Shown here: in pieces, positions 7,223 to 43,179 of the stretch
Position numbering within the stretch: the stretch's first letter is position 1
Layout of the letters: each line of letters begins with the position of its first letter
Assembly (NCBI RefSeq): GCF_041248615.1
Contig: NZ_CP158426.1
Source: Escherichia coli
GTDB taxonomy: Bacteria; Pseudomonadota; Gammaproteobacteria; Enterobacterales; Enterobacteriaceae
Direction: 5' to 3' (one strand)
Length of the DNA stretch: 64,000 bases
Notes under the pieces: generated by a model
What the model was told of the DNA's origin: nothing
What the model saw: the letters and a program-made list of their open reading frames with translations, nothing else
Databases searched by the model: none
Position numbers and translations under genes: made by a program

Positions 7223-7290
7223 ATACTGACATCGTCTCCTCTTGCCAACTCATTATCGATGGTGAGGGGACCCTTATCGGAAATACTATT

Positions 7291-8235: not shown

Positions 8236-8263
8236 TTAATCATGTTATTGATTTTACATAAAT

Positions 8264-8294
8264 GCCGAAGTGTCTTTTCACCTTCGGCTTTTTT
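8264..8294 (+). terminator. intrinsic terminator between yfdV and yfdE
   Basis: Stem gccgaag(tg)/(ca)ccttcggc followed by TTTTTT. Confidence 0.65.
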
Positions 8295-8308
8295 CAAGGC
8301 ATAAGCAA

Positions 8309-9454
8309 ATGACAAATAATGAATGCAAAGGGCCGTTTGAAGGCTTATTAGTTATCGATATGACACATGTCCTTAATGGACCTTTCGGAACTCAACTTCT
8401 TTGTAATATGGGCGCAAGGGTAATTAAAGTTGAGCCGCCGGGTCATGGTGATGATACCCGCACATTTGGTCCCTATGTGGATGGGCAGTCACTCTATTAC
8501 AGTTTTATTAATCATGGCAAAGAGAGTGTGGTTCTTGATTTAAAGAATGCTCACGATAAAAGTATATTTATAAATATGCTTAAACAAGCTGATGTATTAG
8601 CTGAGAATTTTCGCCCAGGTACAATGGAAAAACTGGGGTTTTCATGGGAAAGGTTACAAGAAATCAACCCGCGCCTCATCTATGCTTCATCGTCGGGTTT
8701 CGGGCATACCGGTCCGTTAAAAGATGCTCCTGCCTACGATACCATTATTCAGGCAATGAGCGGGATAATGATGGAAACAGGGTACCCTGATGCTCCTCCA
8801 GTGCGTGTTGGTACCTCTCTTGCGGATCTATGCGGCGGTGTCTATTTATTCAGCGGAATAGTGAGTGCACTTTATGGTCGCGAAAAGAGCCAGAGAGGGG
8901 CGCATGTCGATATAGCGATGTTTGATGCCACGCTGAGTTTTCTGGAGCATGGTCTGATGGCATATATTGCGACAGGGAAGTCACCACAACGCCTGGGAAA
9001 TCGCCATCCCTACATGGCACCTTTTGATGTTTTTGATACTCAGGATAAGCCGATTACGATTTGTTGTGGTAATGACAAGCTTTTTTCTGCGTTATGCCAG
9101 GCACTGGAGCTTACAGAACTGGTTGATGATCCCCGATTTATCAGCAATATTTTACGCGTACAAAACCAGGCTATTCTTAAACAATATATTGAGCGGACGT
9201 TAAAAACACAGGCAGCTGAAGTTTGGTTAGCCAGAATACATGAAGTTGGTGTACCCGTAGCGCCGTTATTAAGTGTGGCTGAGGCCATTAATTTGCCACA
9301 AACTCAGGCGAGAAATATGTTGATTGAAGCCGGGGGAATAATGATGCCGGGTAATCCGATAAAAATCAGCGGCTGCGCGGACCCGCATGTTATGCCGGGA
9401 GCGGCAACGCTCGACCAGCATGGGGAACAAATTCGCCAGGAATTCTCATCGTAA
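8309..9454 (+). CDS. yfdE: family III CoA-transferase (acetyl-CoA:oxalate CoA-transferase), 381 aa
   Basis: ORF 8270-9454; product begins MTNNECKGPFEGLLVIDMTHVLNGPFGTQLL at the internal ATG 8309, CaiB/BaiF-type fold. Confidence 0.88.
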   Translation: MTNNECKGPFEGLLVIDMTHVLNGPFGTQLLCNMGARVIKVEPPGHGDDTRTFGPYVDGQSLYYSFINHGKESVVLDLKNAHDKSIFINMLKQADVLAENFRPGTMEKLGFSWERLQEINPRLIYASSSGFGHTGPLKDAPAYDTIIQAMSGIMMETGYPDAPPVRVGTSLADLCGGVYLFSGIVSALYGREKSQRGAHVDIAMFDATLSFLEHGLMAYIATGKSPQRLGNRHPYMAPFDVFDTQDKPITICCGNDKLFSALCQALELTELVDDPRFISNILRVQNQAILKQYIERTLKTQAAEVWLARIHEVGVPVAPLLSVAEAINLPQTQARNMLIEAGGIMMPGNPIKISGCADPHVMPGAATLDQHGEQIRQEFSS

Positions 9455-9475
9455 ATTAAGATGTGCTGGTAAATA

Positions 9476-9502
9476 GCTCCCACATTTGAACATTGTGGGA
9501 GC
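9476..9502. terminator. stem-loop between convergent yfdE and evgS, likely bidirectional terminator
   Basis: gctcccaca / tgtgggagc inverted repeat with 9-nt loop, between the two stop codons. Confidence 0.5.
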
Positions 9503-9508
9503 CGCTAT

Positions 9509-12500: not shown

Positions 12501-13102
12501 ACGGATGCTAATGCCTGATATAAATTTGTAAAAGAGATAATTGTTGCTTTTGGAAATGATTGATGAATTACCTCGTCTGGAGGGTAATTTGCTACCCGAG
12601 CAATATTTACTGGTTTTGATGAGGTAAGCGGTCTCATTGAATCGTGAAGGGTGGTGACGAGCGCCGGAAAGGTAATTATCAGCGGTTTGGTTGCAGCAAT
12701 GTCATCATTAAGAGGCGGCGAAGCAACTAAATGTGATAACACTATATCGACTTCCCCTTCTGTAAGCGCGTCCATTGCTTTTTGATGATCTGCGTATTCC
12801 CGGAGTGTTAATTTGATATTTAACGCTCTTTTTAAAAGATTTAAATAATCAGCATTAATACCACGAACCCGTTGCTGCGAATCGGTATGCAACAAAGTAG
12901 CCGTTTGGGACTTGTGTACTGCAATCACAAGATTTTTTTTGCTCGCTAACCAACGTAATTCCTTGTTGCTCAGACGTAGTGGATCAAGCGTGACACGGTT
13001 GTTACTACTGATGCCACGATATTCGATGTAATCTTCGTCTGCGAAACTTATGGTCGACCAAAGACCACAACAGAGAAGAATAATATAGGGTAAAAACTTC
13101 AT
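9509..13102 (-). CDS. evgS: hybrid sensor histidine kinase EvgS (1197 aa)
   Basis: 1197-aa ORF: two periplasmic solute-binding-like domains, TM segment, PAS, HisKA/HATPase (SHEIRTP), receiver and HPt domains. Confidence 0.95.
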   Translation of the reverse strand: MKFLPYIILLCCGLWSTISFADEDYIEYRGISSNNRVTLDPLRLSNKELRWLASKKNLVIAVHKSQTATLLHTDSQQRVRGINADYLNLLKRALNIKLTLREYADHQKAMDALTEGEVDIVLSHLVASPPLNDDIAATKPLIITFPALVTTLHDSMRPLTSSKPVNIARVANYPPDEVIHQSFPKATIISFTNLYQALASVSAGQNDYFIGSNIITSSMISRYFTHSLNVVKYYNSPRQYNFFLTRKESVVLNEVLNRFVDALTNEVRYEVSQNWLDTGNLAFLNKPLELTEHEKQWIKQHPDLKVLENPYSPPYSMTDENGSVRGVMGDILNIITLQTGLNFSPITVSHNIHAGTQLNPGGWDILPGAIYSEDRENNVLFAEAFITTPYVFVMQKAPDSEQTLKKGMKVAIPYYYELHSQLKEMYPEVEWIKVDNASAAFHKVKEGELDALVATQLNSRYMIDHYYPNELYHFLIPGVQNASLSFAFPRGEPELKDIINKALNAIPPSEVLRLTEKWIKMPNVTIDTWDLYSEQFYIVTTLSVLLVGSSLLWGFYLLRSVRRRKVIQGDLENQISFRKALSDSLPNPTYVVNWQGNVISHNSAFEHYFTADYYKNAMLPLENSDSPFKDVFSNAHEVTAETKENRTIYTQVFEIDNGIEKRCINHWHTLCNLPASDHAVYICGWQDITETRDLIHALEVERNKAINATVAKSQFLATMSHEIRTPISSIMGFLELLSGSGLSKEQRVEAISLAYATGQSLLGLIGEILDVDKIESGNYQLQPQWVDIPTLVQNTCHSFGAIAASKSIALSCSSTFPEHYLVKIDPQAFKQVLSNLLSNALKFTTEGAVKITTSLVNIDDNHAVIKMTIMDSGSGLSQEEQQQLFKRYSQTSAGRQQTGSGLGLMICKELIKNMQGDLSLESHPGIGTTFTITIPVEITQQVATVEAKAEQPMTLPEKLSILIADDHPTNRLLLKRQLNLLGYDVDEATDGVQALHKVSMQHYDLLITDVNMPNMDGFELTRKLREQNSSLPIWGLTANAQANEREKGLNYGMNLCLFKPLTLDVMKTHLSQLHQVAPIAPQYRHLDIEALKNNTANDLQLMQEILMTFQHETHKDLPAAFHALEAGDNRTFHQCIHRIHGAANILNLQKLINISHQLEITPVSDDSKPEILQLLNSVKEHIAELDQEIAVFCQQND

Positions 13103-13106
13103 GTGG

Positions 13107-13721
13107 TTAGCCGATTTTGTTACGTTGTGCGAATGTGTAAAGATCCATCAGTGATTTACATTCTAATTTTTCCATCAGGCGACTTTTATAAGTGCTGACA
13201 GTTTTGTTGCTGATGAACATTTTTTCCGCAATGTCATTATTATCCTTGCCATCAAGAATATATCGCATGACACTAATTTCTTGTTTCGATAAGGAGTCGA
13301 GTTTTTGCTGGTCGGACGTTAAACTTCCAACAAACCGGTTGAGAGAGAAGGGGAAATAGCAGTAGCCATTTTTTGCAGCTTCAATAGCCGCAATGATATT
13401 GTTCATGCCTTCTTTTTTACTCACGAATCCATTAGCGCCAGCATCAGCACAATGTTTCCCGTAAAAATGGTCATTTTTAGCGGAGACGATAATAATAATT
13501 CCGCTATATTGGCGCTTCCTCAGCGTTTCTAACACCTGGATACCGTTAACTCCGGGGATATCGACATCAATGATGACGATATCAGGTTTAAGTGTTTCCA
13601 CCCGCTGAACGGCACTTCCCCCTTCAGTCAACTCCGCTAAGATTTCAATATCGTTTTTGATCAATAAATTACGAATTGCTGCGATAGCAAGAGGATGGTC
13701 ATCAATAATTATTGCGTTCAT
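13107..13721 (-). CDS. evgA: NarL/LuxR-family response regulator EvgA (204 aa)
   Basis: 204-aa ORF MNAIIIDDHPLAIAAIRNLL with receiver domain and C-terminal LuxR helix-turn-helix; 4 bp upstream of evgS. Confidence 0.95.
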   Translation of the reverse strand: MNAIIIDDHPLAIAAIRNLLIKNDIEILAELTEGGSAVQRVETLKPDIVIIDVDIPGVNGIQVLETLRKRQYSGIIIIVSAKNDHFYGKHCADAGANGFVSKKEGMNNIIAAIEAAKNGYCYFPFSLNRFVGSLTSDQQKLDSLSKQEISVMRYILDGKDNNDIAEKMFISNKTVSTYKSRLMEKLECKSLMDLYTFAQRNKIG

Positions 13722-13945
13722 AGATTATTCCCTTTGCAATGAAGCATCTCCCTTCTCCCTGTAGTAATACAGACATAAGGCATCATCTCATTTTCTCAAT
13801 AAAAATAAGAAAATTTGAGCTTCCTTTAAGATAATTCGACAAGTATACCATATAAATAGTCGGCATAAATGAAATGTCAACAATAAAATCAGGGATTGTA
13901 CCGATGATTTATAGTTTCACATTAGCACTATAAGTCTTCTCACTA

Positions 13946-13963
13946 ATCCTACATGCGTAAGAA
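13946..13963. promoter_or_regulatory. EvgA box (18-bp inverted repeat) in the evgA-emrK divergent region
   Basis: ATCCTACATGCGTAAGAA, i.e. TTCTTACG-CA-TGTAGGAT on the other strand, fits the EvgA consensus TTCYTACA-N2-TGTARGAA as I recall it. Confidence 0.6.
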
Positions 13964-14136
13964 TTGTATTGCAAAAGCTACGGTTTAGTCCTCTGTTGTT
14001 TTTTTTGCACCTCATTTAAATTAGGCCTCCAACGTTCCTGGGACAATGTGCAACACATGCACTGTGTTTGATATGAAGAATGAATACTCTTTTCATTCAA
14101 TTCATAAATTTCATCTATGCGAAATGAGAGATAATA

Positions 14137-15300
14137 GTGGAACAGATTAATTCAAATAAAAAACATTCTAACAGAAGAAAATACTTTTCTTTATTGGCGG
14201 TAGTTTTATTTATTGCGTTTTCAGGTGCCTATGCCTATTGGTCAATGGAATTAGAAGACATGATTAGTACAGATGACGCCTATGTCACGGGGAATGCAGA
14301 TCCAATTTCTGCACAAGTTTCAGGCAGCGTCACTGTCGTTAATCATAAAGATACGAACTACGTTCGACAGGGTGACATTTTAGTCTCACTGGATAAGACT
14401 GATGCCACTATCGCACTCAATAAAGCTAAAAATAATCTGGCCAATATTGTTCGGCAAACGAATAAACTGTACTTACAGGATAAACAATACAGTGCCGAAG
14501 TCGCTTCAGCACGTATTCAGTATCAACAATCTTTAGAAGATTATAACCGTCGTGTACCTTTAGCGAAGCAGGGGGTTATTTCAAAAGAAACGCTGGAGCA
14601 TACCAAAGATACGTTAATAAGTAGCAAAGCGGCATTGAATGCTGCTATTCAGGCTTATAAAGCGAATAAAGCTTTAGTAATGAACACACCATTAAACCGT
14701 CAGCCACAAGTCGTTGAAGCGGCGGATGCAACCAAAGAAGCCTGGTTGGCGCTTAAACGTACGGATATTAAGAGTCCGGTTACCGGCTATATTGCCCAGC
14801 GAAGTGTTCAGGTCGGCGAAACAGTGAGTCCCGGACAATCGTTAATGGCTGTCGTACCGGCACGTCAAATGTGGGTTAATGCTAACTTTAAAGAAACACA
14901 ACTCACGGATGTACGGATTGGTCAATCGGTCAATATTATCAGCGATCTTTATGGTGAAAATGTTGTGTTTCATGGTCGGGTGACAGGGATCAATATGGGA
15001 ACCGGCAATGCGTTCTCCTTATTACCTGCACAAAATGCGACAGGGAACTGGATCAAAATCGTTCAGCGTGTACCGGTTGAAGTTTCTCTTGATCCAAAAG
15101 AACTCATGGAACATCCCTTACGTATTGGTTTATCGATGACAGCAACTATTGATACGAAGAACGAAGACATTGCCGAGATGCCTGAGCTGGCTTCAACCGT
15201 GACGTCCATGCCTGCTTATACCAGTAAGGCTTTAGTTATCGATACCAGTCCGATAGAAAAAGAAATTAGCAACATTATTTCGCATAATGGACAACTTTAA
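14137..15300 (+). CDS. emrK: multidrug efflux periplasmic adaptor EmrK (387 aa, GTG start)
   Basis: HlyD/EmrA-family ORF with N-terminal TM anchor; stop overlaps the emrY start (TAATG). Confidence 0.92.
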   Translation: MEQINSNKKHSNRRKYFSLLAVVLFIAFSGAYAYWSMELEDMISTDDAYVTGNADPISAQVSGSVTVVNHKDTNYVRQGDILVSLDKTDATIALNKAKNNLANIVRQTNKLYLQDKQYSAEVASARIQYQQSLEDYNRRVPLAKQGVISKETLEHTKDTLISSKAALNAAIQAYKANKALVMNTPLNRQPQVVEAADATKEAWLALKRTDIKSPVTGYIAQRSVQVGETVSPGQSLMAVVPARQMWVNANFKETQLTDVRIGQSVNIISDLYGENVVFHGRVTGINMGTGNAFSLLPAQNATGNWIKIVQRVPVEVSLDPKELMEHPLRIGLSMTATIDTKNEDIAEMPELASTVTSMPAYTSKALVIDTSPIEKEISNIISHNGQL

Positions 15301-16838
15301 TGGCAATCACTAAATCAACTCCGGCACCATTAACCGGTGGGACGTTATGGTGCGTCACTATTGCATTGTCATTAGCGACGTTTATGCAAATGTTGGATTC
15401 CACTATTTCTAACGTCGCAATACCGACAATATCTGGCTTTCTGGGAGCATCAACAGACGAAGGCACCTGGGTTATCACCTCGTTTGGCGTAGCAAATGCC
15501 ATTGCGATCCCTGTTACCGGCAGGCTGGCACAAAGAATAGGCGAATTAAGATTATTTTTACTTTCAGTCACTTTTTTTTCGCTGTCTTCCTTAATGTGTA
15601 GTTTATCGACCAATCTTGATGTGCTGATATTTTTTAGAGTCGTTCAGGGATTAATGGCGGGGCCGTTAATTCCACTGTCACAGAGTTTATTATTAAGGAA
15701 TTATCCACCAGAAAAAAGAACATTTGCTCTGGCATTATGGTCTATGACCGTGATTATCGCGCCGATATGTGGGCCGATATTGGGCGGTTATATTTGTGAT
15801 AACTTTAGCTGGGGTTGGATATTTTTAATCAATGTCCCTATGGGGATTATCGTCCTGACATTATGCTTAACCTTACTTAAAGGAAGAGAAACTGAGACTT
15901 CACCGGTCAAAATGAATCTACCAGGACTGACCCTGTTAGTGCTCGGTGTTGGTGGCTTGCAAATTATGCTCGATAAAGGGCGCGATCTGGATTGGTTCAA
16001 CTCGAGTACAATAATAATACTAACAGTAGTGTCAGTTATTTCTCTGATCTCTTTAGTCATTTGGGAGTCGACCTCAGAGAATCCGATTCTTGACCTCAGT
16101 TTGTTTAAGTCCCGTAATTTCACCATTGGTATTGTGAGTATCACATGCGCGTATTTATTTTACTCTGGGGCAATAGTCCTTATGCCGCAATTACTCCAGG
16201 AAACGATGGGGTATAATGCGATATGGGCCGGACTTGCCTATGCGCCCATCGGCATCATGCCGCTATTAATATCGCCTTTGATAGGACGTTATGGCAACAA
16301 AATTGATATGCGGTTGTTGGTGACATTTAGTTTTTTAATGTATGCGGTTTGCTATTACTGGCGTTCTGTGACATTTATGCCAACGATTGATTTTACAGGC
16401 ATCATTTTGCCACAGTTTTTCCAGGGATTCGCCGTCGCCTGTTTCTTTTTACCCTTAACAACGATTTCGTTTTCAGGTTTGCCAGATAATAAATTTGCCA
16501 ATGCCTCGAGTATGAGTAATTTTTTTCGTACCTTGTCAGGATCAGTTGGTACGTCGTTGACAATGACGCTGTGGGGACGACGCGAATCGTTACACCATAG
16601 TCAGTTGACAGCAACCATCGATCAATTTAACCCCGTGTTTAATTCATCGTCACAAATTATGGATAAATACTATGGTTCGCTTTCAGGGGTTCTTAATGAA
16701 ATTAATAATGAAATAACTCAGCAGTCACTTTCAATTTCTGCAAATGAGATTTTCCGTATGGCGGCTATTGCTTTTATCTTACTTACGGTTTTGGTTTGGT
16801 TTGCGAAACCGCCGTTTACAGCGAAAGGCGTTGGGTGA
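15300..16838 (+). CDS. emrY: MFS multidrug efflux pump EmrY (512 aa, 14 TM)
   Basis: 512-aa EmrB-like MFS transporter ORF. Confidence 0.93.
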   Translation: MAITKSTPAPLTGGTLWCVTIALSLATFMQMLDSTISNVAIPTISGFLGASTDEGTWVITSFGVANAIAIPVTGRLAQRIGELRLFLLSVTFFSLSSLMCSLSTNLDVLIFFRVVQGLMAGPLIPLSQSLLLRNYPPEKRTFALALWSMTVIIAPICGPILGGYICDNFSWGWIFLINVPMGIIVLTLCLTLLKGRETETSPVKMNLPGLTLLVLGVGGLQIMLDKGRDLDWFNSSTIIILTVVSVISLISLVIWESTSENPILDLSLFKSRNFTIGIVSITCAYLFYSGAIVLMPQLLQETMGYNAIWAGLAYAPIGIMPLLISPLIGRYGNKIDMRLLVTFSFLMYAVCYYWRSVTFMPTIDFTGIILPQFFQGFAVACFFLPLTTISFSGLPDNKFANASSMSNFFRTLSGSVGTSLTMTLWGRRESLHHSQLTATIDQFNPVFNSSSQIMDKYYGSLSGVLNEINNEITQQSLSISANEIFRMAAIAFILLTVLVWFAKPPFTAKGVG

Positions 16839-18292: not shown

Positions 18293-18520
18293 TTAGATGA
18301 TAAATGACAGCAGGAATGTGCCCGCCAGAGCGACGACTGAAGCGATAAATGTCGCGGTCGTATAGTATTTAAATGTTTCATTGAGCGTAGCGTCGCAATA
18401 TTGCTTCACCAGCCAGAAAAGCGAGTCCGTAACGATCGTGCAGCCAATCGCACCTGAACCGATAGCAATCGCAATAATTTCCGGGCTGATGTCGGGATAC
18501 AGCGGCAGCACAATGATCCA
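18293..18520 (-). pseudogene. dsdX: dsdX D-serine permease (GntP family), 3' fragment only (~72 codons)
   Basis: Minus-strand frame encodes a GntP-family C-terminal TM segment ...[59 protein letters not shown]; in-frame stop at 18524-18526, no upstream dsdX sequence, cscR begins ~230 bp further on. Confidence 0.8.
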
Positions 18521-18753
18521 TATTTATATTTTCTTCTCCAGATTGGCGATGCCAGTTGGCATGTTTTACCTACTTGCCTACATGGTTACTCGTTGGCGAG
18601 AACAGAGGCGGAATTGGGTACAATTGTCCGGGAATTATTGTTATTTTTTATTGTATTGCCGTGTCGGGTGATAGGGCGTCGAGAATATCGTTGGATCTCG
18701 CCAGTGACGTCTGTTTCTGCTACAGTGCCCGTTTTACGGCAAACGGCTTGGGT

Positions 18754-19749
18754 ATGGCTTCATTAAAGGATGTCGCACGCCTGGCGGGAGTGTCGATGAT
18801 GACAGTCTCCCGGGTGATGCATAATGCAGAATCTGTGCGTCCTGCAACGCGTGATCGCGTATTGCAGGCAATCCAGACCCTGAATTATGTTCCTGATCTT
18901 TCCGCCCGTAAGATGCGCGCTCAAGGACGTAAGCCGTCGACTCTCGCCGTGCTGGCGCAGGACACGGCCACCACTCCTTTCTCTGTTGATATTCTGCTTG
19001 CCATTGAGCAAACCGCCAGCGAGTTCGGCTGGAATAGTTTTTTAATCAATATTTTTTCTGAAGATGACGCTGCCCGCGCGGCACGTCAGCTGCTTGCCCA
19101 CCGTCCGGATGGCATTATCTATACAACAATGGGGCTGCGACATATCACGCTGCCTGAGTCTCTGTATGGTGAAAATATTGTATTGGCGAACTGTGTGGCG
19201 GATGACCCAGCGTTACCCAGTTATATCCCTGATGATTACACTGCACAATATGAATCAACACAGCATTTGCTCGCGGCGGGCTATCGTCAACCGTTATGCT
19301 TCTGGCTACCGGAAAGTGCGTTGGCAACAGGGTATCGTCGGCAGGGATTTGAGCAGGCCTGGCGTGATGCTGGACGAGATCTGGCTGAGGTGAAACAATT
19401 TCACATGGCAACAGGTGATGATCACTACACCGATCTCGCAAGTTTACTCAATGACCACTTCAAATCTGGCAAACCAGATTTTGATGTTCTGATATGTGGT
19501 AACGATCGCGCAGCCTTTGTCGCTTATCAGGTTCTCCTGGCGAAGGGGGTACGTATCCCGCAGGATGTCGCCGTAATGGGCTTTGATAATCTGGTTGGCG
19601 TCGGGCATCTGTTTTTACCGCCGCTGACCACAATTCAGCTTCCACATGACATTATCGGGCGGGAAGCTGCATTGCATATTATTGAAGGTCGTGAAGGGGG
19701 AAGAGTGACGCGGATCCCTTGCCCGCTGTTGATCCGTTGTTCCACCTGA
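18754..19749 (+). CDS. cscR: LacI-family sucrose operon repressor CscR (331 aa)
   Basis: Product begins MASLKDVARLAGVSMMTVSRVMHN (helix-turn-helix) at the internal ATG 18754, followed by a periplasmic-binding-protein-like sugar-binding domain; the longer upstream ORF start is rejected. Confidence 0.9.
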   Translation: MASLKDVARLAGVSMMTVSRVMHNAESVRPATRDRVLQAIQTLNYVPDLSARKMRAQGRKPSTLAVLAQDTATTPFSVDILLAIEQTASEFGWNSFLINIFSEDDAARAARQLLAHRPDGIIYTTMGLRHITLPESLYGENIVLANCVADDPALPSYIPDDYTAQYESTQHLLAAGYRQPLCFWLPESALATGYRRQGFEQAWRDAGRDLAEVKQFHMATGDDHYTDLASLLNDHFKSGKPDFDVLICGNDRAAFVAYQVLLAKGVRIPQDVAVMGFDNLVGVGHLFLPPLTTIQLPHDIIGREAALHIIEGREGGRVTRIPCPLLIRCST

Positions 19750-19756
19750 TATTATG

Positions 19757-33835: not shown

Positions 33836-34321
33836 ATGCAAGTTTTTATCATGCGTCACGGCGACGCAGCCCTCGATGCCGCCAGTGATTCGGTTCGTCC
33901 TCTGACTACTAACGGTTGTGACGAATCTCGCCTGATGGCGAACTGGCTGAAAGGTCAAAAAGTGGAAATCGAACGCGTTCTGGTGAGCCCGTTCCTGCGA
34001 GCCGAGCAAACACTGGAAGAAGTAGGGGATTGTCTGAACCTGCCTTCCAGTGCAGAAGTTCTGCCGGAGTTAACGCCCTGCGGCGATGTTGGTCTGGTCA
34101 GTGCCTATTTACAGGCGTTGACCAATGAAGGTGTTGCTTCGGTACTGGTGATCTCCCACTTACCCTTAGTCGGGTATCTGGTTGCTGAGTTATGTCCGGG
34201 CGAAACGCCGCCTATGTTTACCACCTCGGCCATTGCCAGCGTAACGCTTGATGAAAGCGGAAACGGCACATTCAACTGGCAGATGAGCCCGTGTAATCTG
34301 AAGATGGCAAAAGCGATTTAA
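33836..34321 (+). CDS. sixA: phosphohistidine phosphatase SixA (161 aa)
   Basis: MQVFIMRHGDAA with the RHG histidine-phosphatase motif. Confidence 0.93.
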   Translation: MQVFIMRHGDAALDAASDSVRPLTTNGCDESRLMANWLKGQKVEIERVLVSPFLRAEQTLEEVGDCLNLPSSAEVLPELTPCGDVGLVSAYLQALTNEGVASVLVISHLPLVGYLVAELCPGETPPMFTTSAIASVTLDESGNGTFNWQMSPCNLKMAKAI

Positions 34322-34333
34322 TACGCATGCACA

Positions 34334-34370
34334 AGGCCCGCTGGTGTAATCTATCGGGCCTTTATTTTCT
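34334..34370 (+). terminator. intrinsic terminator after sixA
   Basis: AGGCCCG-14 nt loop-CGGGCCT followed by TTATTTTCT. Confidence 0.6.
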
Positions 34371-34980
34371 GGCAATGTTGAATTTATGCAATCTTATTGT
34401 ACTAACAATGATCCGCTTGTGATCGAATGGTCTTTATTTTATACGGCATGACGCTTTTATTTGTAAAAATTTACATATTGAAAGAGAATTTACTTTTATT
34501 CATAAATTATTTTTCTGGAAGCATTTTTAGGTAAATAATGACTAAAGTGAAAAATATTATTGGGTCTTGATTTTATATTAATTATAGTGTTTTAATATTA
34601 TATCGTTGCGAAATTAATATCACAAGATAGTCATTGCCATGTGATTGTTTTTGACTTTAATTTATTCACTGGGTTTTTGCATTTGCCGTTTTTTTGAACT
34701 CATTCTTCATAACTGAGATGAAAAATTTCAGTAATTATTATTCCTGCCTATTAATTAAGTATTTCTAACTTTGAATGTTAGAAAATCTAAATTGCGTCAG
34801 TCATATTAAAATATCAATATGTTCGGCACGCCAAAGAATATTGATTCAAGGGACCTGTTTTTTCAGGATCTGAAAATATGTTCATTGGCTGGTTAAAAGT
34901 CGCTGCAAAAAATTGAAGAAGCTCTGTGTCAATATTTCAGTTGGCTTATATTCTAATTATTTATGATTTAAGGACAAATA

Positions 34981-35547
34981 ATGAGTAAGTTTGTAAAAGC
35001 AGCAGTTGCCACGGCAATGCTCATGGGGGCGCTGACTTCAGCATCAGTCGTTGCCGCAGGGAACAACGGTACAGTGAGATTTTACGGCACAATTGAAGAC
35101 TCCCCGTGCTCAATTGTTCCTGACGATCATAAACTGGAAGTGGATATGGGCAGCATCGGTACGGGTTCTTTAACCGGCGGCAAAACAACCACACCAAAAG
35201 ATTTCCAGATTCGTTTACAGGACTGTAATTTCAATACAGAAACGACAATGGCTACCACATTCACCGGTAATCCGTACTCCACTAACGCAGATAACTATTC
35301 TCTGTCTAACATGGATAATGGAACTGAAATTCCAAACGTTAGCCTGGTTATCGGTGACCAGCACGGTACAGGTTATGCACTGGGAGCAGAGATTAAGCAA
35401 CCTATCGTGAAGGACAGTTCAACGGGAAAAGGCAAGCCTAAACAAACTCTGAACTTTAAAGCATGGTTAGTGGGTGAAACGGATGCTGTAACACCAACAC
35501 CGGCACCGTTTGAAACGCTGACGACGTTCCAGATCACGTATCTCTAA
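34981..35547 (+). CDS. yfcV: fimbrial major subunit (chaperone-usher pilin), 188 aa
   Basis: Signal peptide then pilin domain with conserved Cys pair and C-terminal FQITYL donor strand. Confidence 0.88.
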   Translation: MSKFVKAAVATAMLMGALTSASVVAAGNNGTVRFYGTIEDSPCSIVPDDHKLEVDMGSIGTGSLTGGKTTTPKDFQIRLQDCNFNTETTMATTFTGNPYSTNADNYSLSNMDNGTEIPNVSLVIGDQHGTGYALGAEIKQPIVKDSSTGKGKPKQTLNFKAWLVGETDAVTPTPAPFETLTTFQITYL

Positions 35548-35618
35548 TGTATTTCCCCCATAGCTGCAAAGTTATGGGGTTTATAACTACCAAATAACTA
35601 AATTATAAAAAATCATGG

Positions 35619-38270
35619 ATGGATACGCCGATGCCAGAACATTCTTTTCTCCGTTTACGGGGGCTTTCGTGGTGGATTGCTCTGGCAATTTCTGGAAGTC
35701 CATTTAATGCCCTGGCAGACGATACCGTTCAGTTTGATGGCCGATTTCTTGATTTAAAAGGCAATACCAAAATTGATTTGGGCCGTTTTTCGCAAAAAGG
35801 CTATGTTGAACCGGGAAAATATAACTTACGCGTTCATGTAAATAATCAGCCGTTACCTGACGACTACGATATCTACTGGTACGCAACTGAAAACGATCCG
35901 AATAAATCATATGCCTGCTTATCGCCAGAGCTGGTTGCCCAGTTTGGTCTGAAGGAAGATATTGCAAAGAATTTGCAATGGATCCGCGATGGTCAGTGTC
36001 TGAATACGGCACTTTTAGCAGGTACAGAAATTAGCGGCGATTTAGGCCAGTCTGCACTCCTTGTTTCTGTACCGCAGGCTTATCTGGAATATACCGACAG
36101 CGAGTGGGACCCGCCTTCGCGCTGGGATGACGGTATCCCTGGGCTTATTGCCGATTACAGTATCAACGCGCAAACCCGACATGAAAATGGGGGTGATGAC
36201 ACTAACGACATCAGCGGTAATGGTATGGTCGGCGTTAACGTTGGGCCGTGGCGCTTACGAGCTGACTGGCAGAGCGATTATCAGCATACCCGCAGTAACG
36301 ATGACGGCGACACTGACGATAGCGGTACGCAAAAAAACTGGGAGTGGAGTCGTTACTACGCCTGGCGCGCCTTGCCGTCATTAAAAGCCAAACTTTCGCT
36401 GGGCGAAGATTATCTCAACTCCGATATTTTTGATGGCTTCAGTTACATTGGCGGCAGCATCAGTACCGATGATCAAATGTTACCGCCAAACCTGCGCGGC
36501 TACGCCCCCGATATTTCAGGTGTTGCACACACTACCGCTAAAGTGACTGTAACCCAAATGGGCCGTGTCATTTACGAAACCCAGGTACCCGCAGGTCCAT
36601 TCCGCATTCAGGATATTGGCGACTCCGTCTCTGGCACGCTGCATGTCCGCATTGAAGAACAAAACGGCCAGGTACAAGAATACGACGTCAGCACGGCGTC
36701 CATGCCGTTCCTGACTCGCCCCGGCCAGGTGCGTTATAAAGTGACAATGGGGCGTCCACAAAACTGGGACCATCAGGTTGCAGGTAGCTTCTTCTCGGGC
36801 GGCGAGGCGTCGTGGGGGATAGCCAATGGCTGGTCGCTCTACGGCGGTGCGTTAGCCGATGAAAACTACCAGTCGGCGGCGCTGGGCCTCGGTCGTGACC
36901 TGGCGCTGTTAGGCGCGTTAGCGTTTGATGTCACTCACTCTCGTGTTCAACTCGACGATAACAGCGTGTATGGCAACAAAACGCTGGACGGCAACTCTTA
37001 TCGCGTCAGCTATGCCAAAGATTTTGATGAACTCAACAGTCGGGTGACGTTTGCTGGATACCGCTTCTCTGAAAAAAACTACATGACCATGAGCGAGTAT
37101 CTGGATGCGAACGACGACGACCGGGCGCGCACCGGTAACGACAAAGAGATGTATACGGTCACCTATAACCAGAACTTCACGGATGCGCGCGTTTCGGTCT
37201 ATCTCAATTATTCCCACCATACCTACTGGGATCGCCAGGATCAAACCAACTACAACATGATGCTTTCTCATTATTTCAATTTAGGAAGCCTTCGTAACTT
37301 GAGCGTTTCTCTGACTGGTTATCGCTACGAATACGATAAAAGTGCCGACAAGGGTGTTTATCTGTCCTTAAGTTTGCCGTGGGGCGACAACAGCACCATC
37401 AGTTACAACGGCAACTATGGCAGCGGTGCCGACAGCAATCAGGTGAGCCTGTACCACCGCATTGATGACGCCAGCCACTACACGTTAAGCGCCGGAACCA
37501 GCGAAAACCACAGCAGCGTGGATGGCTACTACAGCCACGATGGCACTCTGGCAAAAGTTGATCTCAGTGCTAACTACCATGAAGGGCAATACACCTCAGC
37601 AGGGATCTCTTTACAGGGCGGGGCAACGTTGACCGCTCATGGCGGGGCACTGCATCGTACACAAAATATGGGCGGCACACGTCTGTTAATCGACGCTGAT
37701 GGTGTTGCTAATGTACCGGTTGAAGGTAATGGTTCCGCCGTTTATACCAACATGTTCGGCAAAGCGGTGGTGGCAGATGTGAATGATTACTACCGCAACC
37801 AGGCTTATATCGATTTGAACAAACTGCCGGAAAACGCCGAAGCTACAAAATCAGTGGTTCAGGCAACGCTGACGGAAGGCGCTATTGGCTACCGTAAATT
37901 TGCGGTAATCAGCGGTGAGAAGGCGATGGCAGTGCTGCGCTTGCAGGATGGCAGCCATCCGCCATTTGGGGCGGAAGTAAAAAACGATAATCAACAACAA
38001 GTAGGGTTGGTTGATGACGAAGGTAATGTTTATCTGGCAGGCGTTAAACCGGGTGAACATATGACCGTTTTCTGGGAGGGTGAATCTCACTGCGATATCA
38101 GCCTGCCAGACCCGTTACCGAATGACCTGTTCAATGGCTTGTTGTTGCCATGCCAGCAAAAGGGGGGAAGTTCTCCCGTCATACCGCATGATATTCAACC
38201 CGTCATTCAGGAACAGACACAACAGGTGACACCAATGGAACCGCCGATGTCTGTTTCATCGAACCAATAA
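35619..38270 (+). CDS. yfcU: fimbrial outer-membrane usher, apparently intact (883 aa)
   Basis: Single uninterrupted 883-aa ORF with usher-like N-terminal plug and beta-barrel regions; I recall the K-12 copy being split (yfcT/yfcU). Confidence 0.88.
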   Translation: MDTPMPEHSFLRLRGLSWWIALAISGSPFNALADDTVQFDGRFLDLKGNTKIDLGRFSQKGYVEPGKYNLRVHVNNQPLPDDYDIYWYATENDPNKSYACLSPELVAQFGLKEDIAKNLQWIRDGQCLNTALLAGTEISGDLGQSALLVSVPQAYLEYTDSEWDPPSRWDDGIPGLIADYSINAQTRHENGGDDTNDISGNGMVGVNVGPWRLRADWQSDYQHTRSNDDGDTDDSGTQKNWEWSRYYAWRALPSLKAKLSLGEDYLNSDIFDGFSYIGGSISTDDQMLPPNLRGYAPDISGVAHTTAKVTVTQMGRVIYETQVPAGPFRIQDIGDSVSGTLHVRIEEQNGQVQEYDVSTASMPFLTRPGQVRYKVTMGRPQNWDHQVAGSFFSGGEASWGIANGWSLYGGALADENYQSAALGLGRDLALLGALAFDVTHSRVQLDDNSVYGNKTLDGNSYRVSYAKDFDELNSRVTFAGYRFSEKNYMTMSEYLDANDDDRARTGNDKEMYTVTYNQNFTDARVSVYLNYSHHTYWDRQDQTNYNMMLSHYFNLGSLRNLSVSLTGYRYEYDKSADKGVYLSLSLPWGDNSTISYNGNYGSGADSNQVSLYHRIDDASHYTLSAGTSENHSSVDGYYSHDGTLAKVDLSANYHEGQYTSAGISLQGGATLTAHGGALHRTQNMGGTRLLIDADGVANVPVEGNGSAVYTNMFGKAVVADVNDYYRNQAYIDLNKLPENAEATKSVVQATLTEGAIGYRKFAVISGEKAMAVLRLQDGSHPPFGAEVKNDNQQQVGLVDDEGNVYLAGVKPGEHMTVFWEGESHCDISLPDPLPNDLFNGLLLPCQQKGGSSPVIPHDIQPVIQEQTQQVTPMEPPMSVSSNQ

Positions 38271-38289
38271 CGTGATTAAGGAATGATCC

Positions 38290-39039
38290 ATGACTAAATA
38301 TCTCTCTGCCAAAACATTGACAACGGTACTGTCGTTACTGGCAGCAACGGTAAGTTTTTCTGCTCAGGCGTCAGTAACGCCCGATCGTACTCGCCTGATT
38401 TTTAATGAAAGCGATAAATCTATCAGCGTGACGCTGCGTAATAACGACCCCAAACTGCCTTATCTGGCGCAAAGCTGGATTGAAGATGAAAAGGGCGTCA
38501 AAATCAGCTCGCCGCTGGCGGTATTGCCGCCTGTACAGCGCATTGAAGCAATGATGAATGGCCAGGTTAAAATTCAGGGCCTGCCGGATATTCATAAATT
38601 ACCTGCCGATCGGGAATCGATGTTCTATTTCAACGTGCGCGAAATTCCGCCGAAATCGAACAAATCCAACACGCTACAAATCGCTCTTCAGACGCGTATC
38701 AAACTTTTCTGGCGACCGAAAGCTCTGGAAAAAAACACCACGCAAAACCCGTGGCAGCATAAAGTGACCTTAACCCGCAACGGTCAGGAATTTACTGTCA
38801 ATAACCCGACGCCGTATTACGTCATTTTCAGTAATGCCAGCGCACAGAAAAATGGCAATCCGGCAGCCGGTTTCTCGCCTATAGTGATGTCGCCGAAAAC
38901 CTCTGCACCGCTGAATGTGAAGATGGGGAGTGTGCCGGTACTGACCTATGTCAACGACTATGGCGCTCGGATGCCGCTCTTTTTCACCTGCAACGGCAAT
39001 AGTTGCCAGGTTGATGAAGAGCAGAGCCGCAAAGGCTAA
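38290..39039 (+). CDS. yfcS: periplasmic fimbrial chaperone (PapD-like), 249 aa
   Basis: Signal peptide plus PapD-like two-domain ORF. Confidence 0.88.
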   Translation: MTKYLSAKTLTTVLSLLAATVSFSAQASVTPDRTRLIFNESDKSISVTLRNNDPKLPYLAQSWIEDEKGVKISSPLAVLPPVQRIEAMMNGQVKIQGLPDIHKLPADRESMFYFNVREIPPKSNKSNTLQIALQTRIKLFWRPKALEKNTTQNPWQHKVTLTRNGQEFTVNNPTPYYVIFSNASAQKNGNPAAGFSPIVMSPKTSAPLNVKMGSVPVLTYVNDYGARMPLFFTCNGNSCQVDEEQSRKG

Positions 39040-39055
39040 TGACGGGAGAGCCAGT

Positions 39056-39562
39056 ATGAAAGGATCTTGTTCTGTCTGGGCGGTAACTGGGTTACTGATA
39101 TGTTGTGTTGGTAGCGGCTTTGCAGTTGCAGCGAGTAAGTCAGTAAGTATGAATTTACGGGTACTTGTTGATGCCCCTCCTCCTTGTACGGTAAATGGTG
39201 CGGCAGTTGAGTTTGGTAATGTATTCATTAATAAGATCGATGGGGTGAGTTATAACCGTCCCATTGACTACTCGCTTGTTTGCAACAATTTGGCAATGGA
39301 TGACTTGCGTTTACAGATGCAGGCGACAACGGTCGTGATTAACGGTGAAACAGTTATCAGCACAGGTATTCCAGGGTTTGGTATTCGGGTTCAAAAAAGT
39401 AGTGATCACTCAATACTCGACTTAACGTCTGGTTCATGGTTGCCGTTTAATTTTTCCTCGGGCATCCCTGCACTTGAAGCCGTGCCGGTGAAACAGAGTG
39501 GTACAACCTTAGCGGCAGCGGAATTTAACGCCAGCGCCACAATTGTGGTGGATTATCAATGA
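39056..39562 (+). CDS. yfcR: fimbrial-like minor subunit
   Basis: Start placed at ATG 39056 (GGGAGAG Shine-Dalgarno, MKGSCSVWAVTGLLICCVGSGFAVA signal peptide); the longer ORF from 38948 overlapping yfcS is rejected; C-terminal VVDYQ. Confidence 0.8.
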   Translation: MKGSCSVWAVTGLLICCVGSGFAVAASKSVSMNLRVLVDAPPPCTVNGAAVEFGNVFINKIDGVSYNRPIDYSLVCNNLAMDDLRLQMQATTVVINGETVISTGIPGFGIRVQKSSDHSILDLTSGSWLPFNFSSGIPALEAVPVKQSGTTLAAAEFNASATIVVDYQ

Positions 39563-40029
39563 AACGGATCTCACTTCTTGTGCTGTGGGGCTTTTGCTCG
39601 ATGGCACTCTCAAATGTCTCTTTTCACGGCTATTTAGTGCAGCCGCCTAACTGCACTATTAGCAACGCTCAAACCATAGAAATCACCTTTCAGGATGTGT
39701 TTGTTGATGACATTAATGGCAGTAATTATGAGCAAACGGTGCCGTATTCAATTACCTGTGATACGGCGGTTCGCGACCCATCAATGGAAATGACCTTGAG
39801 CTGGAGTGGCACACAAAGCGATTTTGATGATGCCGCAGTAAGCAGCAATATCACTGGATTAGGTATTCAGCTTAAACAGGCTGGGCAGCGTTTTAGGATC
39901 AATACGCCACTCGTGGTGAATGAAACCGATTTACCGGTGTTAACGGCTGTGCCAGTAAAAAAGAGTGGTGTTGATCTGCCTGAGGCGGACTTTGAAGCCT
40001 GGGCCACGTTACAGGTGGATTATCAATGA
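39559..40029 (+). CDS. yfcQ: fimbrial-like minor subunit
   Basis: ATGA overlap with the yfcR stop; signal peptide; C-terminal QVDYQ. Confidence 0.85.
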   Translation: MKRISLLVLWGFCSMALSNVSFHGYLVQPPNCTISNAQTIEITFQDVFVDDINGSNYEQTVPYSITCDTAVRDPSMEMTLSWSGTQSDFDDAAVSSNITGLGIQLKQAGQRFRINTPLVVNETDLPVLTAVPVKKSGVDLPEADFEAWATLQVDYQ

Positions 40030-40550
40030 AGAAAAAGTGTGCGTTGATTTTTATCAATAGCCTACTGTTGCTGAACAGCGGCACCACAACAGCGGTAGAT
40101 AATCTGCACTTTACCGGCAATTTAATCAGTAAATCGTGTACACCAGTGATCAACGGTAGCCAGTTGGCAGAGGTACATTTTACTGCCATTGCCGCCAGCG
40201 ATTTAATGAACATTGGGCAGTCAGAGCGAGTGCCGTTGGTCATTCAATTGAAGGATTGTCAAAGTTCTACATCGCTGAGTGTCAGAGTCACGTTAACGGG
40301 AACAGAAGATAGTGAACTGCCCGGATTTCTGGCTTTTGACGCCTCGTCTTCTGCGTCCGGCGCTGGGATTGGAATTGAAACAGCGGCAGGTATACCAGTG
40401 CCAGTCAACAATACAACAGGCGTCACGCTCCCGCTGACTCAGGGAAATAACAGCCTAAATTTTAATGCCTGGTTACAGGCGAAGAGCGGGCGAAATGTAA
40501 CGTCCGGTGACTTTAACGCCACTGTGACGGCAACCTTTGAGTATTTATAA
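40026..40550 (+). CDS. yfcP: fimbrial-like minor subunit
   Basis: ATGA overlap with the yfcQ stop; signal peptide; C-terminal TFEYL. Confidence 0.85.
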   Translation: MKKKCALIFINSLLLLNSGTTTAVDNLHFTGNLISKSCTPVINGSQLAEVHFTAIAASDLMNIGQSERVPLVIQLKDCQSSTSLSVRVTLTGTEDSELPGFLAFDASSSASGAGIGIETAAGIPVPVNNTTGVTLPLTQGNNSLNFNAWLQAKSGRNVTSGDFNATVTATFEYL

Positions 40551-40551
40551 C

Positions 40552-41406
40552 ATGAAAAAATGGACCCTATTTTTCGCGAGCCTGATGCTGCTTGTCCTGA
40601 ATGTTGTCGGCACACCCAGGAGCTATGCTGGGGATAAACTTATGAGTTCAAGTTTCGACAGTGTGAGAGTTTATTATGCGATGGACACGGTAACAGGGGT
40701 GGCCGCGAGTATCGTTTTCAATGTTACGGTGTTAACACCAGGGGAGGTCGCGTATGGGAAATATAATTCTATTGGGCGTAAAGGAGATACTCTGAGGCTG
40801 ATTTCCTGGACGGGTTCGGGCCCGGCACCAACTCTGGTTATAACGGATTATGATACGATTAATAATTCACATTGCCCCGGTATTGATACGGATCTTTTCC
40901 GTTGTGCATATATGACATTTAAAGTCACCGTTGCATCTGATAATTATGGTTGCCCGTGGATCGCGTCCTTTTATTCATATACAAACTTACCCGGATATTT
41001 TGATGGAAGCTACACGAGCCCGACTGTGCATAACTCAATATGCCCAACGATACCGGTCGCCTCCTATGATATCTCCTGGAGTGAAAATTATGTCAGTCAT
41101 AATAAAGCGCTACAGCTACAGTCCACGGGGTCGACAATTACCACCACGCTTTCGACCTACCTGATGGAAAACGGCAAACTCTGTGACGGCAGCGTTTTTG
41201 ATAGTAGAGGTGCATACTGCCGTGCGGTATCAGAACTGTTAACCTTTACCTCTTATGGCTGCGACAAATCAACGGTAACGGTGACCCCCACACGTCATCC
41301 GGTAACCGATAAAGAGTTACATGATATCGTGGTGAAGGTGAATACCAGCAGTCGGCAACCGATTGATTCTACGTGTCGTTTTCAGTATGTATTGAATGAG
41401 TTATAG
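40552..41406 (+). CDS. yfcO: putative fimbrial tip adhesin-like protein
   Basis: ORF 40537-41406; start placed at MKKWTLFFASLMLLVLNVVG (signal peptide); last gene of the operon. Confidence 0.75.
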   Translation: MKKWTLFFASLMLLVLNVVGTPRSYAGDKLMSSSFDSVRVYYAMDTVTGVAASIVFNVTVLTPGEVAYGKYNSIGRKGDTLRLISWTGSGPAPTLVITDYDTINNSHCPGIDTDLFRCAYMTFKVTVASDNYGCPWIASFYSYTNLPGYFDGSYTSPTVHNSICPTIPVASYDISWSENYVSHNKALQLQSTGSTITTTLSTYLMENGKLCDGSVFDSRGAYCRAVSELLTFTSYGCDKSTVTVTPTRHPVTDKELHDIVVKVNTSSRQPIDSTCRFQYVLNEL

Positions 41407-41419
41407 CTCGTCGTTGTGC

Positions 41420-41520
41420 ACTGATGCCTGATGTGACGCCGACTGAAATGAATCACAATTTATTGAATTATCACATTTTTATCGGCCGGATAAGGCATTC
41501 ACGCCGCATCCGGCATTCGA
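41420..41520. repeat. REP/BIME repetitive extragenic palindromes
   Basis: GCCTGATGTGACGCC and GCCGGATAAGGCATTCACGCCGCATCCGGC. Confidence 0.8.
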
Positions 41521-41529
41521 TGCCAGCAT

Positions 41530-42081
41530 TCACGGTAATTCCGGCGGCAACCACTCATCCACTTCAATCAACACCAGCAATGCCGCATCACCACCGTACT
41601 CTTTTGGTGCCTGGTGAAATGCCATCACATGCGGATGTTGCGCCAGCCACAGCGGCGTTTGCTGCTTCAAAATATGCTTCCCATGACCATGCATCACGCA
41701 GGCACAAAACACATGTTCGCGGCGACAGGCGGCAATCAATGCGCCTAACTCCTGCTTGGCTTGCAGCTGCGTCAAACCGTGCAAATCCAAAAACAGCTCC
41801 GGTGAATAATCGCCACGGCGTAACTTCTTCGCCTCAAAATGGCTTACATCCGGGCGAACATATTTCACCGGACCTTCGGTATTCAATAACGGCTGAAATT
41901 CATCGGAAAAATAATGGCTGGCATCGGCCTGCTCCTGAATCAACCGTTTCACCGGCACTTCGCTGATTTTCTTACGCTGCGGTCGGTGGACAATCGTGTC
42001 CTGCTTAATCTTGCGAGTCCCCGCCATCAACTGGCGAAACAGAGCCTGGTCCTCCTCGCTAAGTGTTGTTTTCTTTTTCAT
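41530..42081 (-). CDS. smrB: Smr-domain ribosome-rescue endonuclease SmrB (183 aa)
   Basis: 183-aa ORF with Smr domain ([15 protein letters not shown]). Confidence 0.9.
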
Positions 42082-42246
42082 TTATCTGTCTCTATTTCTA
42101 ATTTTCCTACAGTTTACCCGACTCGTAGCACAATCGATCGTTTTAAACGTATTTTTCCTCACTCACCGCGCGTGAATGCTGATTTATCGTCATCTTCATG
42201 GCAAACTAGCCGCCGAAATTATTGCGATCATGCCCTGGAGGAATAC

Positions 42247-43179
42247 GTGGATAAAATTTTCGTTGATGAAGCAGTAAATGAGCTGCAAACCATTCAGGAC
42301 ATGTTGCGCTGGTCGGTGAGCCGCTTCAGCGCGGCGAATATCTGGTACGGCCACGGCACTGACAACCCGTGGGATGAAGCCGTGCAACTGGTGTTGCCTT
42401 CACTCTACCTGCCGCTGGATATTCCGGAAGATATGCGCACCGCGCGTCTGACCTCCAGCGAAAAACACCGTATTGTTGAACGCGTGATCCGCCGCGTCAA
42501 TGAACGTATTCCGGTGGCTTACCTGACTAACAAAGCCTGGTTCTGCGGTCATGAATTTTACGTCGATGAACGCGTGCTGGTGCCGCGCTCGCCGATTGGT
42601 GAACTGATCAACAATAAATTTGCCGGACTTATCAGCAAGCAACCGCAGCATATTTTAGATATGTGTACCGGTAGCGGCTGCATCGCCATTGCCTGTGCTT
42701 ATGCCTTCCCGGATGCGGAAGTTGACGCGGTGGATATCTCTCCCGACGCGCTGGCGGTTGCTGAACAGAACATCGAAGAACACGGTCTGATCCACAACGT
42801 CATTCCGATTCGCTCTGATCTGTTCCGTGATTTACCGAAAGTGCAGTACGACCTGATTGTCACTAACCCGCCGTATGTCGATGCGGAAGATATGTCCGAC
42901 CTGCCAAATGAGTACCGTCACGAGCCGGAACTGGGCCTGGCATCTGGCACCGACGGCCTGAAACTGACGCGTCGCATTCTCGGAAACGCGGCAGATTACC
43001 TCGCTGATGATGGCGTGCTGATTTGTGAAGTGGGCAACAGCATGGTACATCTTATGGAACAATATCCGGATGTTCCGTTCACCTGGCTGGAGTTTGATAA
43101 CGGCGGCGATGGTGTGTTTATGCTCACCAAAGAGCAGCTGCTGGCGGCCCGTGAACATTTCGCGATTTATAAAGATTAA
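42247..43179 (+). CDS. prmB: ribosomal protein L3 glutamine N5-methyltransferase PrmB (310 aa, GTG start)
   Basis: GGAGG Shine-Dalgarno then GTG 42247 ([14 protein letters not shown]); SAM-methyltransferase motifs [10 protein letters not shown] and NPPY; the long upstream ORF from 41914 is rejected. Confidence 0.88.

Follow-up and report, generated by a model that had tools for sequence, protein, structure and literature searches.

The interval between sixA and smrB (yfcN) of the Escherichia coli chromosome is the site of chaperone-usher fimbrial genes, which in strain K-12 form the yfc operon. Yfc has been described as a core-associated fimbria, yfc being the one cluster found intact in every genome of the survey in question (Wurpel 2013, PMC3559732), and the yad, yeh and yfc operons are said to encode surface organelles that are functional, though cryptic (Korea 2010, cited in PMC3559732). 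The yfc/eso site is of the pi type, and a different seven-gene cluster of this type, a sister allele that was given another name, is located between sixA and yfcN in E. coli W and O157:H7 (ECs3222-ECs3216, eso/epo; PMC3032704). Yfc genes exhibit a high nucleotide diversity and yield trees that are incongruent with multilocus sequence typing (PMC4850163), and the authors of VirulenceFinder had to set the K-12 yfcV gene apart as a 'cryptic' variant (PMC7512150). RefSeq and the literature (PMC3559732, PMC3032704, PMC4850163, PMC7512150) thus already cover the operon and where it lies, its presence and intact state in nearly all strains, the pseudogene of K-12 and the existence of divergent alleles. 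Here, we analyzed the yfc locus in 64,000 nucleotides (nt) of an E. coli chromosome (contig NZ_CP158426.1), i.e. the whole stretch that is called the window in the following and to which all positions refer. What our findings add is limited to two points, for each of which there is published precedent: the allele of the window is far removed from that of K-12, and the locus consists of modules that recombine.

We conclude, with a probability of roughly 85%, that the window harbors a complete pi-class yfc operon at the sixA-smrB site, in which the intact usher is the normal state and which is one of several deeply diverged, recombining alleles under purifying selection. Seven consecutive open reading frames (ORFs), all open and all on the plus strand, are found at 34981-41406, flanked by sixA (33836-34321) on the 5' side and by smrB (41530-42081, minus strand, convergent with the fimbrial genes) on the 3' side. 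The first gene (34981-35547) encodes a YfcV/StfA-like major pilin of 188 amino acids (aa) with the Pfam domain Fimbrial (E = 4e-18); StfA is its best NCBIfam match, with a score below the StfA cutoff. The second gene (35631-38270, ORF open from 35619) encodes the outer membrane usher of 879 aa, which is uninterrupted, as the Pfam domains PapC_N, Usher and PapC_C span residues 38-828 in one ORF with no internal stops in the translation. It is followed by the gene for a PapD-like periplasmic chaperone of 249 aa (38290-39039, PapD_N and PapD_C), the genes for three minor pilins with the domain Fimbrial, i.e. a YfcR/StfE-like (R; 39056-39562, 168 aa from the ATG), a YfcQ/StfF-like (Q; 39559-40029, 156 aa) and a YfcP/StfG-like one (P; 40026-40550, 174 aa), whose best NCBIfam matches are StfE, StfF and StfG, respectively, and, finally, a gene (O; 40552-41406) for a putative two-domain tip adhesin of 284 aa from the StfH/YfcO family (DUF2544, E = 6e-79). 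According to the translations the four Fimbrial-domain proteins have hydrophobic N-termini and end in ...ITYL, ...VDYQ, ...VDYQ and ...FEYL. An intact three-domain usher, a PapD-like chaperone and pilin subunits, by which a chaperone-usher operon is recognized, are all present, so that a preliminary description of this DNA, which had claimed an intact seven-gene operon including the usher, is borne out by the open ORFs and the fitting Pfam families, and its assignment to yfc by the position between sixA and smrB/yfcN.

The sixA-smrB interval is 100% identical to that in the chromosome of E. coli isolate 362 (NZ_OW967178.1), where RefSeq calls the same seven genes. A match to the locus is present in 5408 of 5426 complete genomes, i.e. 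the Yfc locus is carried by essentially all E. coli. As to the allele classes in these genomes, 555 share at least 95% identity with the allele of the window, 1056 share 80-90% and 3797 share 60-80%.

For some of the genes more than one start is conceivable. The usher had been described as a single ORF of 883 aa, and there is indeed one open frame from the ATG at 35619, but the start four codons downstream, at 35631, is homologous to that of K-12 and is the choice of RefSeq, making it the likelier one and reducing the length to 879 aa. For the R-like gene the ATG at 39056 (168 aa), the RefSeq start at 39014 and the start of the longest ORF at 38948 (204 aa) come into question. Most plausibly, the gene would start at the ATG at 39056, because it is preceded by a GGGAGAG Shine-Dalgarno sequence and the signal peptide begins at once, whereas the 204-aa ORF read earlier, which originates inside the chaperone gene, is too long. 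Similarly, the TTG at 40537 once taken as start of the adhesin-like gene gives way to the ATG at 40552, one base past the preceding stop, so that the P/O junction consists of a stop, 1 nt and the ATG. ATGA overlaps, from which translational coupling had been deduced, occur at two of the six junctions, i.e. R/Q (39559-39562) and Q/P (40026-40029), but not at the other four. The gap between the pilin and the usher gene comprises 83 nt (to the start at 35631) and contains a hairpin, and that between the usher and the chaperone gene 19 nt.

The K-12 usher, disrupted according to the preliminary description, is so indeed. In MG1655 yfcU is annotated as pseudogene (b4661), and upon translation we find a single in-frame TAG at codon 579 (...ADKGM*ISLS...). 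At this position all five non-K-12 alleles inspected, i.e. those of the window, 200177, ET120, O157:H7 NE122 and PSUO2, have a Tyr, and in each of them the usher lacks an internal stop and all seven genes are open. As ET120 shows the same local context as K-12 around codon 579, but with the Tyr, the K-12 change is a plain Tyr-to-TAG nonsense mutation. Of the 5426 complete genomes, 363 contain the K-12 61-mer over the TAG without any mismatch and another 1410 deviate from it by 1-2 bases. All five of the listed records with an exact match belong to K-12 or laboratory derivatives, namely ER1709, a K-12 strain, MC1061, a 'laboratory developed' strain and a mouse-passaged strain. An intact usher is thus the expected, usual state and the K-12 stop the exception, a private nonsense mutation, because the usher is open in the five non-K-12 alleles, yfc is intact throughout in the published survey (PMC3559732) and the listed stop records are K-12 derivatives. 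Intactness is therefore the norm and not a peculiarity of this strain.

What does set the window allele apart is its distance from K-12. The encoded proteins share 67% (YfcV), 81% (usher), 84% (chaperone), 52% (R), 49% (Q), 55% (P) and 48% (YfcO) identity with their K-12 counterparts, whereas the flanking SixA and SmrB are 100% and 99% identical. At the nucleotide level (200-bp windows) the identity to K-12 amounts to 95-99% up to 34199, to 42-83% from 34400 to ~41600 and to 91-99% beyond; in sixA/fadJ it likewise lies at 91-99%. Thus, the window operon is not the K-12 operon with its usher unbroken, but a distinct allelic form with proteins 48-84% identical to those of K-12. The rate of synonymous substitutions (dS) of the usher versus K-12 is ~2, i.e. 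saturated, with a ratio of nonsynonymous to synonymous rates (dN/dS) of 0.06, compared to a dS of 0.08 for sixA and of 0.45 for smrB, the 3' end of which borders the diverged block. As the usher has a dN/dS of 0.06-0.08 versus five alleles at a dS of ~2, purifying selection has acted over the long term, and judging from these rates the operon is kept under strong purifying selection. Along smrB the identity to K-12 climbs from 91% to 99%, away from the fimbrial operon. Judging from this gradient, the tracts of recombination around the yfc block probably terminate within smrB. With a broken usher and tip proteins that are only about half identical, K-12 serves poorly as a reference here, and for these two reasons functional inferences should not be passed from K-12 to the window allele.

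The alleles are, moreover, not inherited as a whole. ET120 combines a K-12-like YfcV and usher (98%) with window-like R (96%) and Q (94%) proteins, and a three-way alignment of ET120, K-12 and the window places the recombination breakpoint at 38743-38747 inside the chaperone gene, between the regions coding for its two Pfam domains. Before the breakpoint 190 informative sites are K-12-like and 14 window-like, after it 339 are window-like and 18 K-12-like. Nord122 (NZ_CP139853.1) matches the window over the first 4743 bp only, i.e. from the leader to the chaperone, with 98.4% identity, its tip genes being unmatched, and by its sequence appears to be the recombinant type reciprocal to ET120. An identity of at least 95% to the window is found for the pilin-plus-usher segment in 555 genomes and for the tip segment (39056-41406) in 314, the latter being 80-90% identical in 1007 genomes, and the differing counts for the two modules (555 versus 314) agree with independent assortment. 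We suggest that homologous recombination reshuffles the alleles as two modules. The first extends from the pilin through the usher to the N-terminal half of the chaperone, and the second contains the C-terminal half of that protein along with the adhesin and the three minor pilins. For the more far-reaching idea of a two-module cassette, in which ancient 'assembly' and 'tip' alleles are kept by diversifying or frequency-dependent selection and cross over preferentially at the inter-domain stretch of the chaperone, we consider the odds to be even. If true, receptor specificity could be swapped without upsetting the pairing of usher and rod, and the window would represent one combination, with an uncharacterized adhesin specificity.

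The last gene had been called adhesin-like, which is in line with its position at the end of the operon and with the architecture of its product, a variable N-terminus followed by a conserved C-terminus. RefSeq names the protein 'StfH/YfcO family fimbrial adhesin', although none of the NCBIfam families matches it at E <= 0.001. In an alignment of 42 sequences the invariant and nearly invariant columns accumulate behind residue ~164, in the C-terminal ~120 residues, whereas the N-terminal ~165 residues are hypervariable with insertions and deletions, as would be anticipated if a receptor-binding domain were joined to a pilin domain. AlphaFold2 predicts an all-beta structure (mean predicted local distance difference test score 84.9), the structural matches of which are generic immunoglobulin-like folds only; sequence searches yielded neither a relative of solved structure nor a detectable similarity to PapG. 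YfcO homologs grade from 100% down to ~40% identity and nearly all stem from E. coli or other Escherichia. Based on these features we regard the protein as a putative tip adhesin, and since recombination at the locus is modular, our findings suggest that selection may act on its binding specificity. The YfcO/StfH family as a whole, hypervariable and without a solved structure or known receptor, is possibly worth a targeted study, although this is not specific to the window.

Two structured elements accompany the coding regions. A hairpin with a 10-bp stem and a U-rich tail is predicted at 35556-35579 (plus strand; CCCCAUAGCU-GCAA-AGUUAUGGGG), 9 nt past the stop of the pilin gene. It is kept in six of six alleles, with changes on both sides preserving the pairing at columns 20/33 and 22/31, whereas the rest of the pilin-usher spacer is poorly conserved among these alleles. 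papA and fimA provide precedents for a hairpin behind the pilin gene that raises expression of the pilin over that of the usher and tip genes. By analogy, the hairpin is probably a partial (leaky) terminator or an mRNA stabilizer that sets the ratio of pilin to usher, and would hold the expression of the usher and tip genes below the level of the rod subunit. The second element is palindromic, resembles repetitive extragenic palindromic (REP) sequences and lies at 41484-41527 in the spacer that separates the last fimbrial gene from smrB; it can be folded and is recognized by the Rfam family naRNA4 on both strands, with a sub-threshold score of 32.9 bits compared to a gathering score of 59.5. 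Two mechanically called plus-strand ORFs (41424-41966, 180 aa, and 41914-43179, 421 aa), which overlap smrB and the region upstream of prmB, were dismissed as artefacts; according to RefSeq prmB starts at 42247.

The operon is preceded by a leader, i.e. the intergenic region between sixA and yfcV (34322-34980). Described beforehand as a very AT-rich region of 660 bp, it has 659 bp and a GC content of 29%, compared to 49% in the whole window, and ranks among the two most AT-rich 600-bp bins of the window. It is equalled in this respect by a stretch of 33-36% GC in the mlaA-fadL interval, in which the gene for a 415-aa 'hypothetical protein' is located (26390-27637, minus strand). The initial ~45 bp of the leader are taken up by the intrinsic terminator hairpin of sixA (34333-34368, plus strand), with perfect 8-nt arms (AAGGCCCG ... 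CGGGCCTT) and the subsequent TTATTTTC. Among six alleles conserved blocks are confined to the last ~200 bp before the ATG and include the invariant ribosome-binding region TTTAAGGACAAATAATG. The leader contains no ORF of more than 35 aa lying wholly inside it, and an Rfam scan of 34200-41700 (E <= 1) gave no match in the leader, the only hit being the sub-threshold naRNA4 downstream of the operon. Transcription would probably start in this AT-rich region. H-NS has been stated to repress the cryptic chaperone-usher operons of E. coli (Korea 2010, cited in PMC3559732), and because of the base composition of the leader and the published behavior of the cryptic K-12 chaperone-usher operons, silencing by H-NS is the likeliest mode of regulation and, by this analogy, probably prevails under laboratory conditions. 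The H-NS nucleation motif TCGATAAATT proved uninformative, with four two-mismatch matches in the leader and 80 in the window versus 75 expected, as such matches have no discriminating power in AT-rich DNA.

By analogy to the Pap and Fim systems, the subunits would be exported by Sec and captured by the PapD-like chaperone via donor-strand complementation. The PapC-like usher would then polymerize them, beginning with the YfcO-like tip adhesin, followed by the three minor pilins as adaptor or fibrillum subunits and finally by the YfcV-like rod.

Instead of being simply silenced by H-NS, the operon might be controlled by a phase switch built from the repeats and GATC sites of the leader, either a fim-like invertible promoter or a pap-like Dam/Lrp switch. 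The inverted repeats to which the preliminary description had drawn attention, TTCTAAC/GTTAGAA (34763/34777) and TCAATAT/ATATTGA (34814/34838), do exist, and inverted repeats with 7-nt arms are about threefold enriched in the leader, amounting to 11 versus 3.75 +/- 2.65 in dinucleotide shuffles, only 2.3% of which reach 11. There is also a perfect pair of 9-nt inverted repeats 332 nt apart (34473/34814), three GATC sites are present, and Pap, the closest characterized relative, is known to be phase variable. However, neither of the named repeats is conserved across five other alleles, including those of K-12, O157, B2 and ET120, and TCAATAT/ATATTGA is broken even in the ~90% identical 200177 allele, so that these repeats give no evidence for a regulatory site. 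Distant 9-nt inverted repeats turn up in 89% of the shuffles and the best 60 genome matches are colinear over the leader, none being inverted. In view of the shuffles, the lack of conservation and the colinear matches we rejected an invertible switch. A Pap-like methylation switch was likewise rejected, as no two of the GATC sites (34410, 34421 and 34867) lie ~102 bp apart like those of pap and neither a recombinase nor a papI/papB-like gene is found in or beside the locus. A phase switch is therefore very improbable and we favor plain silencing by H-NS. More fundamentally, the operon could be a functionless relic, the ORFs of which are open, but never expressed or assembled, disabling mutations not having accrued yet. 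This would fit its description as cryptic in K-12 (PMC3559732, PMC7512150), the lack of a clear promoter in our scan, the tolerance of K-12 to the loss of its usher and the IS2/IS3 insertion in the operon of some carriers of the window allele. Several points weigh against our interpretation of a complete operon under selection: scanning with the consensus revealed no convincing sigma-70 promoter on the plus strand near the ATG, the matches being fewer than in shuffles; silencing and fimbrial function of the window allele are what we infer; the conservation of the post-pilin hairpin refers to six sequences only; and the number of genomes with the K-12 stop stems from the exact 61-mer as a proxy, not from a codon-by-codon census. 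Nevertheless, a relic is hardly compatible with an usher dN/dS of 0.06-0.08 between alleles that have reached saturation at synonymous sites (dS ~2), with seven open genes in five of five independent non-K-12 alleles or with the conservation of the ribosome-binding region and the post-pilin hairpin; moreover, yad, yeh and yfc are called functional, albeit cryptic (PMC3559732, citing Korea 2010). We thus consider a relic improbable and a functional operon kept by purifying selection the better explanation.

A further question concerns the origin of the diverged block, as the window allele, rather than being an old polymorphism of E. coli, may have come from a different lineage of Escherichia or enterobacteria through homologous replacement, which would make it a horizontally acquired cassette at a core site. 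The dS of ~2 versus K-12, compared to 0.08 for sixA, and the identity to K-12 that falls abruptly at the sixA stop and recovers in the 3' part of smrB would be in line with such an event, and so would the GC content of the operon (~47%) and the leader (29%), both below that of the flanks, and the occurrence of YfcO relatives in E. albertii, E. fergusonii, E. ruysiae, cryptic Escherichia clades, Salmonella salamae and Pseudocitrobacter. On the other hand, the borders of the block show no mobility genes, tRNA or direct repeats, every close YfcO relative found (at least 66% identity) originates from E. coli or Shigella, and hundreds of E. coli genomes carry the allele, which also takes part in recombinant combinations, as fits a long residence in the species. 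An import, which would not be mutually exclusive with an old polymorphism, is conceivable but rather doubtful, and we prefer to view the window allele as one of the diverged alleles that recombine within E. coli.

According to the RefSeq annotation the window as a whole is an ordinary piece of E. coli chromosome ranging from alaC to yfcA. It includes a csc cluster for sucrose utilization (18293-23638), annotated with a LacI-family regulator, the sucrose-6-phosphate hydrolase cscA, a kinase and a transporter of the major facilitator superfamily, which adjoins a truncated dsdX pseudogene, a tRNA-Arg gene being located nearby (24080-24154); this cluster is a known variable insertion in the dsd/argW region. 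A long stretch of low GC content at 7200-16800 (39-47%, mostly 40-43%) carries yfdV, yfdE, evgS, evgA and emrKY.

In comparison with characterized systems, the window operon is most closely related to Pap. Among solved structures the usher scores 738 bits with PapC and 273-276 bits with FimD, the chaperone 208 bits with PapD and ~96 bits with FimC, and the DRTR and LQTRIKLF motifs of the chaperone align with DRTR and LQTKIKLF of PapD. Judged by residue numbering, these motifs presumably contain the subunit-anchoring residues Arg8 and Lys112 of PapD. The order of genes, i.e. major pilin, usher, chaperone, tip subunits and the adhesin at the end, is also that of Pap, whereas the window locus differs in having neither papI/papB regulators nor a gene for a PapH-like terminator between pilin and usher, in lacking the pap-type GATC pair and in having a DUF2544 protein as adhesin. 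On the basis of these sequence relationships we classify the system as pi-class (Pap-like) and of the Stf/Yfc type. With Salmonella Stf (stfACDEFGH) it shares the seven-gene architecture, and StfA, an StfC-type usher subfamily, StfD, StfE, StfF and StfG are the best NCBIfam matches of six of the seven proteins, although the scores of all subunits and of the chaperone lie below the cutoffs of the Stf equivalogs. The usher passes NF011812 with 1789.6 bits (cutoff 972). The Stf operon of Salmonella occupies a different chromosomal site.

The yfcV marker of uropathogenic E. coli (Spurbeck 2012 PCR; VirulenceFinder) corresponds in gene position and family to the first gene of the window operon, but represents the B2-type allele of the same pilin gene, to which the window pilin is 74% identical at the aa level. 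Neither of the published primers for polymerase chain reaction (PCR; PMC6057003) matches the window within three mismatches, and among the loci compared the forward primer has an exact match only in the PSUO2 allele. As the primers find no match, the strain would score negative by yfcV PCR, i.e. typing with this marker catches the B2-type allele only and strains with a complete operon like this one escape it.

Finally, the K-12 Yfc operon (yfcV-yfcU-yfcS-yfcR-yfcQ-yfcP-yfcO, b2339-b2332) is located at the same site and agrees with the window operon in gene order, orientation and protein families. Both have a long AT-rich leader (680 bp in K-12), the invariant ribosome-binding region and the post-pilin hairpin. 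Yfc fimbriae have been defined by the position of the locus together with the phylogeny of the usher (Wurpel 2013). The position agrees, the usher is 81% identical to K-12 YfcU in a pairwise comparison at the aa level, and RefSeq does not name the window allele yfcU. The two operons differ in their leaders, which are largely unalignable save for short blocks, and at codon 579 of the usher gene, where K-12 has the TAG and the window the Tyr codon. The O157 allele is also distinct from that of the window, with 80% identity in the usher, 67% in the pilin and a nucleotide match of ~76%, but in its tip proteins (80% identity for R, 81% for Q and 76% for O) the window allele is nearer to O157 than to K-12.

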